Shown here piece by piece: positions 16,370-46,652 of a stretch of 60,198 nucleotides of DNA. Source of the DNA: a phage. The stretch lies in the NCBI GenBank assembly GCA_018175315.1, contig GCA_018175315.1_4769.1; one strand, written 5' to 3'. The translations under genes were made by a program, and so were the position numbers. The notes under the pieces are model-generated. The model was not told where the DNA came from. It searched no databases and saw nothing but the letters and a program-made list of their open reading frames with translations. Within the stretch, counting starts at the first letter, position 1, and each line of letters begins with the position of its first letter.

Positions 16370-17077
16370 TTAGCAGCAGCCCGTCGGAGGAGTCGGAGGA
16401 GTTGGCAGTTTAAAGTTAACTAACTGCTCAACCTGATTGATCTTACAGGTAAGACCAGCCGTCTGCGCCAACTGAGAGTTTGCAAAGCGAGCTTCCTGCA
16501 ACTGGGACTTCAGGTCACAGATCAGAACTGCTTGCGCCTGTGCGTGCTGGTCACGGATCAGCGCACGGGTAGCTTCAGCTTGACGCTCGATGTTCAGGTT
16601 GGTTTCGCAGCAACACTTCTGAGCTTCTAACTGAGCCTGGAAGGAGCGGGTAATGTTAGCTGCTTCGTTGTTACACAGAGCCGCGAGCACTTGGCTTGTG
16701 CCGCTCTGGATCTGCGTGTTCAGACCAGCAAAACCCTGAACGGAAGCCAGCATGTTTTGAGTGTTCTGCTGAGTAATACCGTTATAAGTAGAAGCAGCGG
16801 AGCGCTCAACAGTCAGGTTAGTACCGTTCTGCCCCTGAATGGTCTGAAGAGTACCGTTGTTGATAGCTTGCAGAATTGCGTTGGTGTCAACAGAAGCCTG
16901 CACTTCCACCGGACCAGCGAAGTTACCGCGACCACCCCAACCACCATTGCCGCCCCAACCATTACCGATCCAGGAACCAATTAAGCCACCGATCGCGCCG
17001 CCGATACCAGCCGCACCAGCTTCACCACCGAAACCGTCGCCACCAAGATTAGTAGGTAAAAGAGTCATGTCAGACAT
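16370..17077 (-). CDS. Gly-rich protein (Gly-rich N-terminus, Q/N/T-rich middle, Cys-rich C-terminus)
   Basis: GGAG RBS before ATG at 17077 (ORF track begins at an upstream alternative start 17206); GGDGFGGEAGAAGIGGAIGG...GNGWGGNGGWGG; ends PTPPTPPTGCC. Confidence 0.55.
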   Translation of the reverse strand: MSDMTLLPTNLGGDGFGGEAGAAGIGGAIGGLIGSWIGNGWGGNGGWGGRGNFAGPVEVQASVDTNAILQAINNGTLQTIQGQNGTNLTVERSAASTYNGITQQNTQNMLASVQGFAGLNTQIQSGTSQVLAALCNNEAANITRSFQAQLEAQKCCCETNLNIERQAEATRALIRDQHAQAQAVLICDLKSQLQEARFANSQLAQTAGLTCKINQVEQLVNFKLPTPPTPPTGCC

Positions 17078-17206
17078 AGGAAAATCTCCATATATGGATT
17101 TGTTAAGCGGATGTAACCAACTGGTTACGAAGTAAAGCATACCCCTTAACATGCTTTTTACAATGATCCAAATGTAAAGATTTTGTAAATTGGGATTGAC
17201 AGTCAA

Positions 17207-17235
17207 TAAAAAGCGCGCCCGAAGACGCGCTTGAA
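17207..17235 (-). terminator. rho-independent terminator downstream of tail-fibre gene
   Basis: Minus strand stem AAGCGCG / CGCGCTT followed by TTTTT; adjacent perfect palindrome ATTGACAGTCAAT at 17195-17207. Confidence 0.5.
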
Positions 17236-17246
17236 GTTAGATGTGG

Positions 17247-19013
17247 TTATGGAAGATCTGCAGTCTGTGAATTGTTTAGATTAGAAATGAGTTCTTTTAG
17301 TTTCTTATTATCTTCTTCCAAAGATTCAATCCGTTTTATAAGTTCTTGCACCACATGCATCGTATCCAAAAGCATAGGTGTTGTGTCAAGTTCCTTTTGT
17401 TCAACAATCTCTCCTGGATTACTGCCAACATATTTACGCGTCTTAACATATAAAGGCTCAACAACCTCTGCTTGCTGTGCAATCACGCCATGCCGAACTC
17501 GATTTTGTTCGTCATTGTCATAAATGAACTCTACAAATTCCAGACCTTGGATATTAGAGTATGACTTTTCAACTCCAACAGGGGCGATGCCGTGTTTTAC
17601 ACGTGAGTCAGAAGTACCATTTTTTGTATAACTAAAGTTCCCGTAATCAGTTGAACAATTTATTTGCCCATCAATGTCAAAAAAGTAACGGCAGAATTTT
17701 CCAGCGTCTCCACCGATAACTACACAGGCTTTGCCAAATGCGTTATTACCTGGAATATACATGTGATATCCAACCTTTGTTGGATATCCATTAGGTCTGA
17801 TGCCGCCGATAGAATAGCCGCGCACCAGCGTATCTGATCCACTCTCGATTGCCACCCTGTCCATTCCGTTAGTGGTCAAGTTAGGCCCGTCGGCATCCGT
17901 TATCCCGTTCCACGTACCAATAGGCGTATACATGCGGAATGGGTTGACCTTCCCTGACTGTCGAAAGTCTACCGTACCATCATCATAAAACTTGTAGGAG
18001 TGTTTAGCGGAGCCTTCAGATTCTATAACAGCCGCAGTATAAGAACCCCAGGTAGTATCAGAGTATAGACGAGCAAACCGCTTACCTGCTGGGTTGGAGT
18101 ATTCCGATACTACTTTACCACCACGAACGGAGGTATTCTGCGGAGGTGTGCTACTATCTGCATTCTTAACACTCCACGAGGTATTCGCAGCTACGAACCC
18201 ACCAGAAGCACGAATTACCCACACACCGACAAAGTTTCGTGTAAGAATCTCATCTGTTGATGCTCCGTAAATTTGACTTGAACGTGAGGCGTCAAAATTT
18301 AGCGTGTTACAACGGCCAGTAAGCGGTGTCTTACCTGCGGGGATGACATCCCCATCCCCGTTAGGAAAAAGCATATTATCAGAAAAGAATGCACCTCTAG
18401 CAGCAGAACCGAATACCTGAGCATACGTACCTCCTGAGTAACTAGGAACAGCACCAGTAATATTAGGTGCAGCAGATTCAAATAGCTGACCATTTGCATT
18501 ACTATTCCCGCCATCACCACGACCATAAAGAGCGCGTATTGATCCCTCCTGCACCCCATTCTTGTCTGGAACACGAAAAGTTGTTGTTCCATTTCCTGAT
18601 GAGTATTTACCACGCTGGAATTTATCAGCTAACCAAACTGAATCATCTATAGCCCCAACCATTTGTGCATACGCCCAGAGTTCAGGCCAATCCGCTCGAT
18701 TCAATAACTGTCCATCAGAAACGACTTCATACGGTTGAATATATGCACGACTGTCGCGTAAGTGGAAGTCACCAACACCATAATTCATGACGCCATTCAT
18801 AGTGGGTCCAACTATACCAGTATTAATCTTATTTTCTACCCAACGTTTGGTTGCAGCATCATAGTCCATAACAGGATCCCCAGCAAGCGGAGTAGATCCA
18901 ATAGGTCGCACGTTTAACCACGCTGCTGCGCGGTCCGCTAAGTCGCTCAGGTTTGCACTCTTTTTAAGAGAGTTCTTGATGTCAGCCGGAATATTTGTTA
19001 CTTGCTTAGTCAT
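17247..19013 (-). CDS. tail fibre protein with C-terminal intramolecular-chaperone-like domain
   Basis: GGGAG RBS before ATG 19013; Gly/Ser/Asn-rich beta-type composition; C-terminal SDSRVKHG resembles the S-D-x-R-x-K self-cleavage site of fibre chaperone domains, followed by coiled-coil tail. Confidence 0.65.
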   Translation of the reverse strand: MTKQVTNIPADIKNSLKKSANLSDLADRAAAWLNVRPIGSTPLAGDPVMDYDAATKRWVENKINTGIVGPTMNGVMNYGVGDFHLRDSRAYIQPYEVVSDGQLLNRADWPELWAYAQMVGAIDDSVWLADKFQRGKYSSGNGTTTFRVPDKNGVQEGSIRALYGRGDGGNSNANGQLFESAAPNITGAVPSYSGGTYAQVFGSAARGAFFSDNMLFPNGDGDVIPAGKTPLTGRCNTLNFDASRSSQIYGASTDEILTRNFVGVWVIRASGGFVAANTSWSVKNADSSTPPQNTSVRGGKVVSEYSNPAGKRFARLYSDTTWGSYTAAVIESEGSAKHSYKFYDDGTVDFRQSGKVNPFRMYTPIGTWNGITDADGPNLTTNGMDRVAIESGSDTLVRGYSIGGIRPNGYPTKVGYHMYIPGNNAFGKACVVIGGDAGKFCRYFFDIDGQINCSTDYGNFSYTKNGTSDSRVKHGIAPVGVEKSYSNIQGLEFVEFIYDNDEQNRVRHGVIAQQAEVVEPLYVKTRKYVGSNPGEIVEQKELDTTPMLLDTMHVVQELIKRIESLEEDNKKLKELISNLNNSQTADLP

Positions 19014-38238: not shown

Positions 38239-39798
38239 TTAAATACCGATAGTTTTACCGACACCTGTATAAACAGCTTGATCCAGAACCATATAACGTA
38301 CTTCATCGCCCATATGGTCTTCACATTCCGTATCAACGTCGTCCTGATCTACTTCATCGCGCGGAAGACTTGGAACAAGTTCAAAGAAATAATTGCAGTT
38401 ATCAAAAACATACATTGCTGGATTTTCACGTGGTCCCGGCAAAGGTTTACCGTTTGCATCTTCCCGCAATGCAGCTTTAAGAAACTCACGCATTTTCTGC
38501 CATCCGCGTTTACGCGACCCAGCAGATTTATCACTTCTCTTCCAATGGATACCGTTATACAGCTTGCCGTTAAGACGAATTTTCTTCGCCATTGTTGCAG
38601 CGGTGGAGTTATTGTTCTCCAGATCCCAAATGGAGTTATCCGCAGGACCAGGAACTACACGATCGTGTATACCCCAGGCTAATTCCCGCTCCAGTATACC
38701 GCTTGCAATTTCTGAGTCCAGCAAATGTAGACCTTCGTTTGTTTTACCGTTGGTCCCATACCATTCGTTAATCCTAAACAGGTCACCTCGGACCGTGGAG
38801 AATGTAGTGCCATCTTCACGCACAACATCCGAACCATCACTAATAGCCCACCAACCGACAGAGAACGGTTTTGAAGAACCCCAGTCGAAAGAACGTGTAA
38901 TCTTCCAACTCGCTGGAATCGGGAATGGTCGTACTTTGTGAACAGTGCTACGCCACAGGTCATCGAACATACCACCGGATGTAATATCCCAGCTCCCGCC
39001 CAACCATGCAGCACGCTTGTTCGGGTCTGTGATAGACATAAGTTCTGCAATATATTTTGGACTTAGGTTTTTGTTTTCACGGTACGAACCAAAGATATGG
39101 CATTGCGTCGTAACCACATCTTCGTCTTTCTGCGTCCTCGGGTTAAACACTCGCGTAGTCTTCCTGAGTATTTTACCCATCGGTGCAGCGTCAATGAAGC
39201 GTTTCTTAACCCAGTTATGCCCCGCACCAAACGGGTTACTGGTAGCAAACACTTCAAGAGGGATATCCGGTAAATATGTGACCGTACCATCTGGATTAAT
39301 AATTGGGTTATCTTCTGGTAAGAAAGATGAACGGTTACAGGACATCATAGCTTCAAACAAACGCCCGTCCGGATATTTTGTTAATTCGTTCCATCCGATA
39401 AATGGGTATTCGTGACCGTGATAAGACCAGTAATCCTTTTCTTTACAAGCAACGCGGAACAGTAGCTCTTCACCAGTAGGCCAAACCCATTTATAATCAG
39501 ACTTAGAGCTAAGGAATTTAGCCCCGTCTTTAAATTCAGGAAACCAACGCTGGGATTTAGTTACAAGGTCATCAAGGTTTTTATATTCACGGTCGAATAT
39601 AATACCCTTCCAAAATTTACCGTACCCTACACCAACATTCTTACGGAAACGCATAAGCTGGCAGTCCGTTTTTCCAGGACCGCGAGTTCCATGGTATAAG
39701 ATAATATCAGCGGGGCAGGATAGAGCGAGTGTCTGTGAACCTGGATGTGGTTTCCAGACGACTCGCGGCATGTTATCAGGTTGTCGGTTTAGCTCCAT
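38239..39798 (-). CDS. terL: terminase large subunit
   Basis: Walker A HGTRGPGKT near N-terminus; 519 aa; C-terminal nuclease-type acidic residues. Confidence 0.85.
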   Translation of the reverse strand: MELNRQPDNMPRVVWKPHPGSQTLALSCPADIILYHGTRGPGKTDCQLMRFRKNVGVGYGKFWKGIIFDREYKNLDDLVTKSQRWFPEFKDGAKFLSSKSDYKWVWPTGEELLFRVACKEKDYWSYHGHEYPFIGWNELTKYPDGRLFEAMMSCNRSSFLPEDNPIINPDGTVTYLPDIPLEVFATSNPFGAGHNWVKKRFIDAAPMGKILRKTTRVFNPRTQKDEDVVTTQCHIFGSYRENKNLSPKYIAELMSITDPNKRAAWLGGSWDITSGGMFDDLWRSTVHKVRPFPIPASWKITRSFDWGSSKPFSVGWWAISDGSDVVREDGTTFSTVRGDLFRINEWYGTNGKTNEGLHLLDSEIASGILERELAWGIHDRVVPGPADNSIWDLENNNSTAATMAKKIRLNGKLYNGIHWKRSDKSAGSRKRGWQKMREFLKAALREDANGKPLPGPRENPAMYVFDNCNYFFELVPSLPRDEVDQDDVDTECEDHMGDEVRYMVLDQAVYTGVGKTIGI

Positions 39799-40333
39799 CT
39801 TCAGTCTCTTTAACTAGTCGTTGTTGAGACTCGGATGCAGTTTTTTCCCATTCGTCAATATTTGCTACAGCAGGGACTATCATTACGCCGCCTCTGTTAG
39901 TAACATCAATCTTAGCCTTCTTGGGAGCATCCAAATCATAAATTTGTGCAAGCTTGCCCAATGCGGCGACTCTAGCAGCTTGAGAAGATCCCGGTCCTGT
40001 ATAATGAGCTTCACGTTTTAATGCTTCAATGATATGCTGACGCTCAAGGTCTGCTTCAATGTTAGCTTGCTCAGAAGTACGTTGAACACGGGATCTTTCA
40101 ATCTCCTTGAGCTTCCATCGAACATAACAGTCCGTGGCAAAGCGTTGGCCCAGCTCCTGTGCAAACATAGCATTGAACCCGCATCTCATGCAAGCGTTAG
40201 TCCAATTGTAGTCGAACATGTACTCAGCAACAACTTTGTCACGTATTGCCATCTCTTCAGCGGACAAGCTATTTGCATACTGGATGTAATTCGTCCAGTC
40301 ACGATCATATTGCTCTTGACTTGCCCCGTTCAT
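39776..40333 (-). CDS. terS: terminase small subunit (putative)
   Basis: 185 aa directly upstream of and overlapping terL. Confidence 0.5.
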   Translation of the reverse strand: MNGASQEQYDRDWTNYIQYANSLSAEEMAIRDKVVAEYMFDYNWTNACMRCGFNAMFAQELGQRFATDCYVRWKLKEIERSRVQRTSEQANIEADLERQHIIEALKREAHYTGPGSSQAARVAALGKLAQIYDLDAPKKAKIDVTNRGGVMIVPAVANIDEWEKTASESQQRLVKETEDGAKPTT

Positions 40334-44682: not shown

Positions 44683-44924
44683 TCTTCCTGCTCCTCTACA
44701 TATTTAGTGACACATTTTTGAAAATTAAGAACGATATTTTTCTCTTTTACGGAGTGAAATTTAACACGTTCCGGACAAATAATCCAGCCTTCAAAACGTT
44801 GAGTAGCGTCATTCCATGCTGCCCGACCATAATACCCGCGATAGGGGCCTAATCGCATTGCATTTACCTCTGTAACCACATTGTTGGAGGTGCTGGGTGT
44901 AGCGCTTACACTGGAGTCGCACAT
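44667..44924 (-). CDS. hypothetical protein (first gene of minus-strand block)
   Basis: AGGAGG RBS before ATG 44924. Confidence 0.5.
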   Translation of the reverse strand: MCDSSVSATPSTSNNVVTEVNAMRLGPYRGYYGRAAWNDATQRFEGWIICPERVKFHSVKEKNIVLNFQKCVTKYVEEQEECLTN

Positions 44925-45096
44925 AAATACCTCCTTGATGCTCTAAAAACAGGTGTGAATTGATAGAAATTGGTTGCATCCGCTTAAAGATGATAGCTAT
45001 GGAGCAGCTACAAGACGAATTATACGTTGACGACTCAGAATTTACTACCAAAATCCATATATTCAGAAAGGATGAGCGCAATATATTCAAAAAGAA

Positions 45097-45230
45097 GGTA
45101 GGTGGGGTCATGGATGTAGGTGGATAGGCTATGTGACAGGTGAGATTTAGGCGTGGACTTACTATCAGGATGGATAAGGCGCCCTCGGGTGATTATTAGT
45201 ACCCTGATGATCCTAGGTGGGGTCTATGAG
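45097..45230. repeat. direct repeats TAGGTGGGGTC(A/T)ATG (2 copies) plus variant GTAGGTGGATAGG in non-coding leader
   Basis: Copies read at 45099-45109 and 45214-45224; variant at 45116-45128. Confidence 0.45.
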
Positions 45231-45632
45231 TCGGCTCATTGGACCGGTCTGTGACTGTAAGATCTGTTATTCTTCCAAACGAATCTATTTCATTCGTCAT
45301 TATACTGATGTATATCGTGAGCTGCCTATATACATGGCGTGCATATAGCAGAGCAGGCCGTACGCGTTAACGTACAGCCTGTGAGCATTGAAATTAGCGC
45401 CGCTTTGTGGGGTACAGCGTGCTCGTTGTGTGTTGGTAATGCATTACCATTACCTTTGTGCATTAGCTCGCTGTGGTGCTGCTGTGTGCGTTATCCTTGC
45501 GAGCGCATGTCCGCATATATGCTTTTACCGCGCATCATGGCACTATGCCAGCCATGAACTGCATATTCTGCGCGCATTGCTGCAATTAATAACGCGTGCT
45601 GTGCGCGTGTAAGCGTGTATTTGCGTGACATA

Positions 45633-46090: not shown

Positions 46091-46296
46091 GATGTAAACC
46101 CCTTTAAGTTAATTTGTAGTACCCTTGCGGTATGTGTATATAGTAGTGCTAGACTGATCATATGTCTACACCTTTTTGCATCTTTTTATAAAAATATTTT
46201 GGCAGCTTTATATGTATGTGCACGCCCGCGCGAATACTCCAGATAATGTGATGTTAGTTAGGCCATTAGTGCTAAACATGCAGGGCAAGCGTATTT

Positions 46297-46324
46297 TTCA
46301 CTAGATGCAAAACAATTCTAAAAT
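46297..46324 (+). promoter_or_regulatory. promoter candidate TTCACT-N16-TAAAAT in divergent intergenic region
   Basis: Hexamers read by eye; upstream of plus-strand gene block. Confidence 0.25.
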
Positions 46325-46416
46325 AGCACTTTTGGCCTATTCAATATCACGATGCATCGCTATTATGTACCCATAGCAACACGATACTACTTCTTAACCA
46401 CACTTGGAGGCGCGTT

Positions 46417-46584
46417 ATGTCCAGCTCATACTTCACTATCATGTACTTCGGTCGCAGTTATTGCATCGACAACAAATACCGCCACCTTACCCGCGCTCAG
46501 CTGGAGTGGGCAATCAGCTTATATAAGCAGGAAGAATTTTATTTCCTTGAAGTCGCACTGGATTATGTAAGCGAAAATAGTTGA
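46417..46584 (+). CDS. small hypothetical protein (55 aa)
   Basis: GGAGG RBS 6 nt before ATG; below the 60-aa cutoff of the ORF track. Confidence 0.4.
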   Translation: MSSSYFTIMYFGRSYCIDNKYRHLTRAQLEWAISLYKQEEFYFLEVALDYVSENS

Positions 46585-46652
46585 TTTATATCTTGCCTAG
46601 TTGATCTGGCTGGGCAATAATAAGTCAACTTAAACAAAAAGAGGATTACATT

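Follow-up and report, generated by a model that had tools for sequence, protein, structure and literature searches.

The window analysed here, 60,198 nucleotides of DNA, is the genome of a Seuratvirus (Queuovirinae) coliphage. Its leftward early transcription unit contains a 566-bp minus-strand spacer (44925–45490) free of open reading frames, which, as judged by sequence comparison, is a non-coding module conserved throughout the genus. We favor, with a probability of roughly 0.4, the reading that this spacer is a Rho-dependent terminator or attenuator combined with a restart promoter and placed at a recombination-prone boundary. An untranslated, G-depleted and poorly folding tract of ~130–160 nt would act as a rut site. 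Host Rho would end or attenuate transcripts from the variable small genes upstream, either inside the tract or shortly past it, and would do likewise to those from an additional promoter (45328–45299) in phages that, like this one, have a long spacer form. The conserved genes that follow would then be transcribed anew from a σ70-type promoter directly downstream of the tract, with a TATAAT −10 element at 45024–45019. Such a spacer, possibly with a temporal role, would insulate the recombination-prone accessory-gene region from conserved early genes.

Position, coding content and variants of the spacer

The spacer separates a 46-aa gene (45631–45491, minus strand), which matches phrog_37795 (E=3.4e-32) and is annotated in relatives, from an 85-aa gene (44924–44667, minus strand), which matches phrog_24875 and shows a weak HicB-like similarity. 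The start of the latter is as an earlier note, made from the letters alone, had described it: the Shine-Dalgarno sequence AAGGAGGT is followed by an ATG at 44924 (both within 44922–44938, minus strand). The same note reported about 600 bp without convincing ORFs. This is correct for 44925–45490 and wrong for 45491–45631, where the interval it had marked takes in the 46-aa gene, a real one. Neither does the region lie at the head of the minus-strand block, as had been proposed. There are three more minus-strand genes upstream of the spacer (45631–45491, 45818–45633 and 46090–45887), so the spacer is internal to the block; the head is the strand switch at ~46091–46650, and the gene map was corrected to place it at ~46.1–46.6 kb.

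No conserved ORF was found in the spacer on either strand, and no ORF in it belongs to a PHROG family. Annotators have called various ORFs across it; those in GenBank (Seurat gp70, CAjan AJT60560, OddieOddie gp76, CSP1_047 and bas21_0079/0080) are probably spurious. A 42-aa plus-strand ORF (44999–45127) was rejected: its changes are mostly non-synonymous, the frame is shifted in CAjan and KS_A8, and the ORF is missing from STP-SP5 and yong3. The minus-strand ORF of the Seurat gp70 type was rejected as well, since its frame is not kept, with a truncation in CAjan and the most conserved block read in a different frame in yong3. The ATG at 45111 is not preceded by a Shine-Dalgarno sequence. A search of the whole window against Rfam 15 at gathering score gave no match; at E≤10 the segment 44700–45900 gave only a chance mir-27 match at E=6, and tRNA and tmRNA scans found nothing.

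Thirty-five phage records contain the spacer, whose length of 400–570 bp is kept in these compact genomes. The module of ~330 nt, from TAACGCACACAGCG to CCCCACCTACC, has been kept by every Seuratvirus examined, and in each lineage a stop codon directly precedes it; the upstream edge, TAACGCACACAGCG, forms the junction to at least six unrelated gene ends. The window has the long form of the spacer, in which a replacement segment of ~250 bp (45181–45436, minus strand) with two strong hairpins and a predicted promoter takes the place of ~150 bp of the short form. This segment was found in 8 of the 35 records, full-length in six and partial in Dru_SM1 and Skure; the rest have the short form. In Dru_SM1, Skure, WildeMaa, phiG7 and SA80RD a conserved block, B6, is replaced by an HNH endonuclease cassette and the C-rich tract described below is kept. 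Scans of IMG/VR, metagenomes and genomes for distant relatives of the module returned only near-identical Seuratvirus contigs and chance matches. The E. coli chromosome contains no match to it, and self-BLAST of the gap revealed no second copy in the window. In Craquatrovirus phages the downstream gene is present and the module is missing.

A C-rich, G-poor tract and its G-rich complement

The tract regarded as a candidate rut site spans 45045–45202 on the minus strand, with a core at 45091–45182. It is C-rich, G-poor and weakly structured. The maximal C/G ratio over 78 nt was 5.36, the highest in the 30-kb minus-strand block (median 0.84, 99th percentile 1.88), with 26–29 C versus 6 G per 78 nt. 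As a positive control, phage lambda gave a peak of 3.27 by the same metric, and this peak coincides exactly with the annotated rutA-nutR-rutB of tR1. In all seven relatives examined, the C/G ratio of the locus is highest over the homologous tract (Seurat 6.6, CAjan 5.7, STP-SP5 5.4, yong3 13, phiG7 3.5, WildeMaa 4.3 and SD04 3.1). G is low even in alignment columns that vary between lineages (10% G and 34% C, compared with 25% and 17% on the sense strand of flanking genes), which suggests that the composition itself is under selection.

The criteria of RhoTermPredict, a 78-nt window with C/G>1 and a C every 11–13 nt (PMC6407284), were re-implemented in a script of our own in place of the published program. 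All 15 best windows of the block fell at 45091–45182, by criteria of a type that is rich in false positives, E. coli alone yielding 23,930 predictions (PMC6407284). YC dinucleotides number 30 in 141 nt against a background of 11.9±4.0, a density in the top 0.3%. Shuffled sequence folds at least as well as the tract in three lineages out of four; in Seurat the tract folds slightly better (z-scores of +1.6, −0.9, +1.05 and +1.8, the second being that of Seurat); for the 371-nt leader z was +1.1. The tract has, over at least 70–80 nt, the C-rich and G-poor composition, the C spacing and YC density and the scarcity of structure expected of a rut site. Having no conserved ORF or frame and no PHROG match, its RNA would also be free of ribosomes, and Rho might bind it. 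Downstream of the tract there are only a small hairpin (44993–45011) and a single GG-N8-YG match at 44931.

The G-rich direct repeats to which the earlier note drew attention are in and near this tract. The element TAGGTGGGGTC does occur exactly twice on the plus strand: copy 1 (45099–45109) is part of conserved block B4 and reads GACCCCACCTA on the transcribed strand, and copy 2 (45214–45224) is present only in the long form. The related sequence is also there, as GTAGGTGGATAGG at 45116–45128 on the plus strand; it is kept in close relatives and degenerate in STP-SP5 and yong3. A fourth relative, CAGGATGGATAAGG, lies at 45166–45179; the candidate rut tract includes copy 1 and the two related copies. 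Both exact copies run on into an ATG, though not by the A/T substitution that had been noted: they continue as ...GTC-ATG and ...GTCTATG and differ by an indel. As for conservation, proposed earlier as a check, copy 1 passes it and copy 2 does not. The former is CCCCACC(T/C)ACC in all relatives examined, including STP-SP5, yong3, phiG7, WildeMaa and SD04, CAjan alone having CCACACCTACC; the counterpart of the latter in the short form is GGATGGGTCGGGT (block B1).

The exact 11-mer repeat goes beyond chance only marginally: when the 566-bp gap was shuffled 2000 times with dinucleotides preserved, 81 shuffles (~4%) contained one at least as long, and 11-mers with up to two mismatches were not enriched in the window (11 found, 7.9 expected). 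Its core, AGGTGG, is found three times in the gap, a number reached in 1 of 2000 shuffles in a post-hoc test. On the transcribed strand the repeats read as the C-rich elements GACCCCACCUA, UAUCCACCUAC and UAUCCAUCCUG. G is depleted in the variable positions separating these elements too, and for that reason we prefer to see the repeats as the complement of a C-rich, G-poor RNA tract over taking them for individual sites of protein binding.

We nevertheless weighed a DNA-level binding array, in which a DNA-binding protein of the phage or the host would use the AGG(T/A)TGG-type motifs, together with the invariant blocks, as operators or activator sites. Such a protein would control the overlapping back-to-back promoters at 45019–45054 and, in the long form, the one at 45299–45328. 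Besides the threefold AGGTGG, the array would account for four related motifs within 125 bp, for blocks that are invariant across phages ~70% identical, and for a palindrome, CTGAC-NN-GTCAG, between the promoter hexamers (perfect in STP-SP5, 4+4 in yong3, imperfect here). It would also accommodate a second direct-repeat pair, ATATATTCAGAAAG/ATATATTCAAAAAG, and the GCTGTG motif, which occurs two to three times per spacer in four lineages against a background of ~0.3 per kb. The motifs are, however, spaced at 17, 50 and 48 bp without helical phasing and lie 75–205 bp upstream of the nearer promoter, copy 2 is swapped for a different sequence in most relatives, and no cognate protein was found. 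Such an array does not predict that G is depleted in variable positions between motifs, or that in every lineage no other part of the block is as extreme in composition as the tract, and we consider it unlikely, if worth keeping in mind. Two further ideas were rejected. A CsrA sponge formed by plus-strand GGA motifs is not indicated, GGA being present 8 times in 566 nt, which is the background level. Sequestration of the ribosome-binding site was suggested by the MFE fold, where the anti-SD UACCUUCUU beside copy 1 pairs with the SD AAGGAGGUA; the pairing is not kept in STP-SP5 and yong3, and with the 45024 promoter in use no single transcript would contain both elements.

The invariant blocks count against the Rho reading, since they are not explained by composition alone and imply an additional sequence-specific reader. 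Block B2, TACTATCAGGATGGA(C/T)A (45160–45176, plus strand), is nearly invariant across the genus and includes the related motif CAGGATGG. For this block the sequence (C/T)(C/T)AT(C/T)CTGATAGTA (CCATCCTGATAGTA in most) is nearly identical in 15 of 15 sequences, STP-SP5 and yong3 among them, and GACCCGACCCA and CATCTTTAAGCGGATG are further blocks invariant across ~70%-identical phages. Block B7, CATCCGCTTAAAGATG (44970–44992, plus strand), is invariant even in STP-SP5. It overlaps an 18-mer, TTGGTTGCATCCGCTTAA, that recurs at 17103–17120 on the minus strand; in T5-like phages the 18-mer is not deeply conserved (12/18 in rutana), so it may be due to chance or be an old recombination scar. The module might conceivably be more than a rut site, namely a genus-specific cis-acting control element that sets the early-to-middle switch, for example a leader of a new kind that antagonises Rho or brings about processive antitermination, or else an R-loop origin served by the conserved opposite-strand promoter, but we consider this a long shot. 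Its blocks are invariant in ~70%-identical phages, yet the module has no RNA-family, protein or host match.

Promoter-like sites on both strands

The candidate restart promoter, TAGTAA-17-TATAAT (45019–45047, minus strand), lies just downstream of the tract and is invariant in close relatives. It matches the consensus at 9 of 12 positions, with a perfect TATAAT; its −35 element matches at only 3 of 6, which put it below the threshold of the promoter scan, and the site was read directly from the sequence. STP-SP5 has TAGAAA-17-TATACT at the same place; phiG7 has, right after its tract, TTGAAA-16-TAAAAT with a TG. Same-direction promoter-like sites thus follow the tract in three lineages; yong3 has none. 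The second minus-strand site, TAGGCA-18-TATAAT (45299–45328, 10/12), is confined to the long form and is annotated as a promoter in SA126VB. The third, TTGACG-16-CAAAAT (45027–45054, 9/12), is on the plus strand, overlaps the candidate restart promoter and spans the TGAC..GTCA palindrome of block B6; it has a counterpart in yong3 (GTGACG-16-TAAAAT) and is missing from HNH-carrying variants. The predicted sites have −35 and −10 hexamers of the σ70 type separated by 16–18 bp. Since a scan of 3.5 kb returned 13 sites where 7.2±2.7 were expected, single promoter matches are weak evidence. A literature search found no transcriptome data for the genus.

Two features of these sites count against the Rho reading. 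A good promoter upstream of the tract in the long form is odd for a simple terminator, and would fit only if the tract is an attenuator or gives rise to a short RNA. The −35 element of the window's restart promoter is poor, and yong3 has no such promoter. On the whole, the earlier proposal of a promoter or regulator region gains from the comparison: the region is conserved and non-coding, σ70-like promoters are predicted on the transcribed and the opposite strand, and the SA126VB annotation places both a promoter and a terminator here.

A tract that is C-rich on one strand is by the same token G-rich on the other, so composition alone is compatible with a function of the plus strand. TTGACG-16-CAAAAT could drive a G-rich antisense RNA across the repeats. 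Like lambda OOP or P22 sar, this RNA might regulate the early leader in cis; alternatively, it might form an R-loop that primes replication, as in ColE1 or a T4-type origin. The window, Seurat and yong3 each gave the promoter-like site independently (the STP-SP5 match is only 8–9/12), and the RNA would become G-rich from ~35 nt after the predicted start. The plus-strand GC skew of +0.2, against −0.15 to −0.35 in flanking genes, resembles that of a plus-sense unit, and several direct-repeat families are present. We still find a plus-strand function improbable. In the five variants with the HNH cassette the promoter and all of B6 are deleted and the tract is kept; the short form lacks a plus-strand intrinsic terminator, and the plus strand shows no excess of structure (z=+1.1). 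Neither an AT-rich unwinding element (the GC content is 41–49%) nor an initiator gene nearby was found.

Sequence constraint, structure and likeness to known systems

That the spacer is neutral, or the remnant of a decayed gene with a repeat arisen by chance, appears very unlikely. The frequency of the exact 11-mer in shuffles, the lineage-specific copy 2 and the assorted ORFs called by annotators would agree with neutrality. Against it, blocks are identical in phages ~70% identical overall, whose flanking proteins are only ~66–68% identical, the compositional extreme is conserved, and a spacer of this length is retained in all 35 compact genomes.

The segment 45296–45495 folds at −62.7 kcal/mol (z=−3.4). 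It contains a 12-bp terminator-like hairpin, AGGCUGUACG-UUAA-CGCGUACGGCCU (45355–45380, minus strand), with a weak U tail; this is a rho-independent terminator in the SA126VB annotation and fails the T-run criterion of our terminator scan. It also contains a perfect 16-nt palindrome, TGGTAATGCATTACCA (45434–45449), a remnant of hairpin H1. The position of H1 is conserved and its sequence differs between lineages, with z-scores of −2.6 to −4.4 in three lineages and energies of −15 to −19 kcal/mol in the Seurat type, −22.2 kcal/mol in STP-SP5 (with different arms) and −7.1 kcal/mol in yong3. The small hairpin downstream of the tract, H2 (GUAGCU...AGCUAU, 44993–45011, minus strand; −5.7 kcal/mol, z −2.15), recurs at the same place in STP-SP5 with different stem bases (−6.8 kcal/mol, z −2.66).

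These two hairpins, conserved in position with differing sequence, and the start of the module immediately behind a stop codon in each lineage are what a structured non-coding RNA or a nut-/put-like element for processive antitermination would offer, together with CGCTCATCC, which weakly resembles the boxA CGCTCTTA. Nevertheless, there is no Rfam match, in three of the four lineages the repeat-bearing part is no more stable than its shuffles, and the RNAalifold consensus of seven lineages, −22 kcal/mol for 297 columns, is unsupported, its covariation term being unfavourable. STP-SP5 and yong3 have not kept the boxA-like string, and no conserved hairpin adjoins it as in a lambda-type nut site; we see slim prospects for a reading of this kind.

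The earlier suggestion of a packaging recognition site (cos or pac) can be set aside as hardly credible: conserved non-coding DNA with repeats is all that speaks for it, while the region is single-copy, lies among early small genes, can lose its left third to an HNH cassette and, by position only, is not where such sites usually are, next to or within the putative small terminase gene, but ~4.6 kb, or roughly a dozen genes, upstream of the putative terminase ORFs (39776–40333, small, and 38239–39798, both labelled so by the earlier note), and the papers on the genus that were searched gave no terminus data, PhageTerm having failed on Seuratvirus isolates in one study.

If the Rho-dependent reading is true, this would be another lytic phage that uses host Rho to partition its early transcription, a useful but unsurprising addition. 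A conserved non-coding element at a recombination-prone boundary is a natural place to seek early transcription control in the 7-deazaguanine-modified Seuratvirus phages, which are of interest for therapy and for their dPreQ0 DNA modification. For engineering, the spacer offers a candidate site of safe insertion.

Among known systems, iteron and R-loop origins share with the spacer short direct-repeat families, strand-asymmetric G and C, and a promoter directed into a G-rich transcript. Such origins have an AT-rich unwinding element with an initiator gene beside it, neither of which was found here; the repeats here are irregularly spaced, and the promoter concerned is dispensable in HNH-carrying variants. 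The PeSL cassettes of T4-type phages, in which early promoters and stem-loop motifs mediate modular shuffling, are short units that recur many times in a genome (PMC2839356, PMC4122927). The module described here is, in contrast, 330–570 bp long and single-copy and was not found outside Seuratvirus. It resembles PeSLs in combining a stem-loop or terminator-like element with a σ70-type promoter at a point of accessory-gene exchange: at least six unrelated gene ends adjoin the upstream edge, the downstream part alternates with the HNH cassette, and the long-form segment is itself a hairpin and promoter unit.

The nutR-tR1 region between cro and cII of lambda has no sequence homology to the spacer, which has no convincing boxA or boxB and for which no N-like antiterminator was found. 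The tR1 spacer, 118 nt, is without embedded promoters; the one described here is four to five times longer and has predicted promoters embedded in it. The end of lambda rutB, ...CCACACCTAT, resembles GACCCCACCTA(C/G) here, a likeness that is likely due to composition, not homology. In both phages an untranslated spacer between early genes contains a hairpin and a C-rich, G-poor local C/G maximum, which is 3.27 in lambda and 5.36 here.

Position of the spacer and its coding potential

The interval 44925-45490 with its flanks matched 35 phage records at 86-97% identity (SLUR25, SA126VB, GottfriedDienst, Seurat and CAjan among others). Almost all belong to Escherichia phages in the genus Seuratvirus (Queuovirinae), and the window is therefore a Seuratvirus genome. 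Minus-strand genes beyond 44924 were assigned from annotation in relatives and from ORF and RBS inspection in the window. The region had been taken for the head of the minus-strand block, a placement refuted by minus-strand genes of 46 aa (45631-45491; phrog_37795, E=3e-32), 61 aa (45818-45633) and 67 aa (46090-45887); the strand switch lies at about 46.1-46.6 kb. Thus, the feature is an internal 566-bp gap of the leftward early block. The minus and plus blocks actually diverge in 46091-46650, where the head-of-block argument would fit and where minus-strand promoter-like sites lie at 46344-46315 and 46168-46140.

The earlier description of the stretch as devoid of convincing ORFs holds for 44925-45490 and fails for 45491-45631, the 46-aa gene. 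ORFs annotated across the gap differ between annotators and lie on both strands; none had a PHROG family. A plus-strand 42-aa ORF was rejected: its changes are mostly non-synonymous, CAjan and KS_A8 carry frameshifts in it, and STP-SP5 and yong3 lack it. The minus-strand gp70 ORF of Seurat was likewise rejected, being truncated in CAjan, and in yong3 the nucleotides of highest conservation fall in another frame. The mutually incompatible calls over 44925-45557 in relatives (Seurat gp70, CAjan AJT60560, OddieOddie gp76, CSP1_047, ECP2304 WVH02280, GottfriedDienst bas21_0079/0080, KS_A8 CDS0087/0088) are probably spurious.

A conserved module in two forms

The region is a conserved regulatory spacer that exists in two forms. 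The window carries the long form, which has full-length matches in 6 records and partial ones in Dru_SM1 and Skure. Most relatives carry a short form, about 140 bp shorter, with 45181-45436 swapped for different, only loosely related sequence. In the distant members STP-SP5 and yong3 (about 70% nucleotide identity; downstream protein 66-68% identical) a gap of 400-425 bp in the same place contains short, near-perfectly identical blocks. Searches outside Seuratvirus and in E. coli genomes gave no further instance of the module.

Numbered in the direction of transcription, the module begins with TAACGCACACAGCG (element 1), whose TAA serves at least six unrelated upstream genes as stop codon. It is followed by hairpin H1 (2), stable in three lineages with different arm sequences, GCACAGC repeats (3), conserved blocks B1 (GACCCGACCCATCC...GGTACTT; 4) and B2 (TGTCCATCCTGATAGTA; 5), and AAATCTCAC (6). 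Next come block B4 (CCCCACCTACC; 7), the complement of repeat copy 1, block B6 (AAATTCTGA.T.GTCA; 8), a small hairpin H2 with a different sequence in STP-SP5 (9), block B7 (CATCTTTAAGCGGATG; 10), and the SD and ATG of the downstream gene (11).

The upstream edge at 45485-45493 (TAACGCACACAGC, minus strand) abuts at least six unrelated gene 3′ ends in different phages, the TAA being common to all, and marks a recombination junction for exchange of early accessory genes. A perfect 16-nt palindrome at 45434-45449, TGGTAATGCATTACCA, is what truncation left of H1, a hairpin with 11-bp arms in short-form relatives; at this position STP-SP5 forms a hairpin of equal strength from other arms. In Dru_SM1, Skure, WildeMaa, phiG7 and SA80RD an HNH homing-endonuclease cassette replaces everything downstream of B4 (44925-45115, the left third), which looks like homing-associated polymorphism. 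In these HNH-cassette phages the 85-aa gene downstream shows only about 68% identity.

The repeats

Exact copies of TAGGTGGGGTC occur twice in the 60-kb window, at 45099-45109 (copy 1) and 45214-45224 (copy 2), with related motifs GTAGGTGGATAGG at 45116-45128 and CAGGATGGATAAGG at 45166-45179. The two exact copies and the related one reported earlier were thus confirmed; the A/T substitution said to follow them is an indel (GTC-ATG vs GTCTATG). An exact 11-mer repeat also arose when the gap was shuffled by dinucleotides (4% of shuffles), and a relaxed motif was not enriched genome-wide. The AGGTGG core (n=3) was equalled in 1/2000 shuffles in a post hoc test. The repeat is marginal by statistics alone, and its significance comes from conservation. 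Copy 1, as the complement of B4, is conserved genus-wide; copy 2 is restricted to the long form, its short-form counterpart being B1. The repeats are genuine, but were misplaced within the logic of the genome.

A second direct repeat, ATATATTCAGAAAG / ATATATTCAAAAAG, at 45057-45070 and 45081-45094 (24 bp apart), adjoins copy 1, and yong3 carries an analogous pair, TATATACAGGT / GATATTCAGGT. At the WildeMaa equivalent of ~45110-45130 a run of 13 C (CACCCCCCCCCCCCCACCTACC) replaces the middle copy and reflects either expansion of a homopolymer within the C-rich tract or a sequencing error. An 18-mer, TTGGTT(G/A)CATCCGCTTAA, lies in the spacer (44970-44987, plus) and at 17103-17120 (minus), within the 5′ leader of the Gly-rich gene (ATG 17076) that directly follows the tail-fibre gene. 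With 2 observed vs 0.15 expected in the window (BLAST E about 0.1), it could have arisen by chance, as a scar of recombination, or as a regulatory word common to both sites. T5-like phages (Gostya9, rutana, many Epseptimavirus) share this leader and the beginning of the gene (17040-17190, minus) at 71-86% identity, which suggests horizontal exchange of an accessory cassette of the tail fibre.

A candidate Rho-dependent stop and restart point

Plus-strand GC skew is +0.2 locally vs −0.15 to −0.35 in flanking genes, a change of sign. As minus-strand RNA, the tract 45045-45202 contains 78-nt stretches with up to 29 C vs 6 G. No other part of the 30-kb minus block reaches its C/G ratio of 5.36 (median 0.84; 99th percentile 1.88), and for YC dinucleotide density it ranks in the top 0.3%. 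When RhoTermPredict criteria (C/G>1, C every 11-13 nt; PMC6407284) were applied through our own script, every one of the 15 top-scoring windows in the block fell at 45091-45182. Applied to lambda as a control, the same C/G metric had its peak (3.27) precisely at rutA-nutR-rutB of tR1 as annotated. The homologous tract was the C/G maximum in 7/7 relatives' loci, reaching 13 in yong3. Alignment columns varying between lineages contain only 10% G and 34% C, compared with 25% G and 17% C on the sense strand of neighbouring genes. Thus, composition itself, beyond motifs, is under selection. The tract folds no better than shuffles in 3/4 lineages (z +1.6, +1.05, +1.8; Seurat −0.9), and the 371-nt leader has z=+1.1 on either strand. 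RNAalifold gave no supported consensus fold, and Rfam no match. The second-highest C/G window of the block (3.55; 17207-17317, minus) lies at the end of the tail-fibre gene and is closely followed by a hairpin that resembles an intrinsic terminator and has a T run.

Directly downstream of the tract is a promoter-like TAGTAA-17-TATAAT (−10 at 45024-45019), invariant in close relatives. STP-SP5 has TAGAAA-17-TATACT at this position, and in phiG7, an HNH variant, the tract is directly followed by TTGAAA-16-TAAAAT and its upstream TG. The long-form segment is highly structured over 200 nt (z=−3.4); it contains TAGGCA-18-TATAAT at 45328-45299 (10/12 consensus matches) and a 12-bp hairpin at 45355-45380, called a terminator in the SA126VB annotation.

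The tract combines the traits that define a Rho utilisation site, being untranslated, C-rich, G-poor, unstructured and at least 80 nt long, with its composition conserved on the transcribed strand and a same-direction promoter after it. This combination suggests, with a probability of roughly 40%, that the G-rich repeats are complementary to C-rich rut elements belonging to a Rho-dependent terminator or attenuator. The layout resembles a terminator-then-promoter boundary, and judged from sequence the spacer is most likely a Rho-type stop and restart point, which would separate variable upstream small genes from conserved downstream early genes.

The invariant blocks B1, B2 and B7 imply an additional sequence-specific reader and keep alive an array of DNA-binding sites, an unlikely alternative. 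The promoter or regulator-binding region proposed earlier survives as a conserved spacer with promoter-like sites, its repeats being probably better read as C-rich RNA elements. Plus-strand antisense transcription or an R-loop would use TTGACG-16-CAAAAT (45027-45054), which overlaps TAGTAA-17-TATAAT on the opposite strand and was also detected in Seurat and yong3; this promoter is missing from, and so dispensable in, HNH variants, which weakens this rather improbable model. The packaging site suggested by the earlier note is without support and very improbable: some 4.6 kb and roughly a dozen genes separate the spacer from ORFs called terminase by that note alone, and genome-terminus data were absent from the literature searched. 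With low probability, the invariant module could also contain a cis-acting element of a new kind.

A Rho-type stop-and-restart spacer would be ordinary phage biology, modest in interest. Like the PeSL cassettes of T4-type phages, it is a hairpin-plus-promoter unit at a gene-shuffling junction (PMC2839356, PMC4122927), but those cassettes are multi-copy and the spacer is not. Although it has neither homology to lambda nutR-tR1 nor a boxA or boxB, that system is its closest functional analogue.
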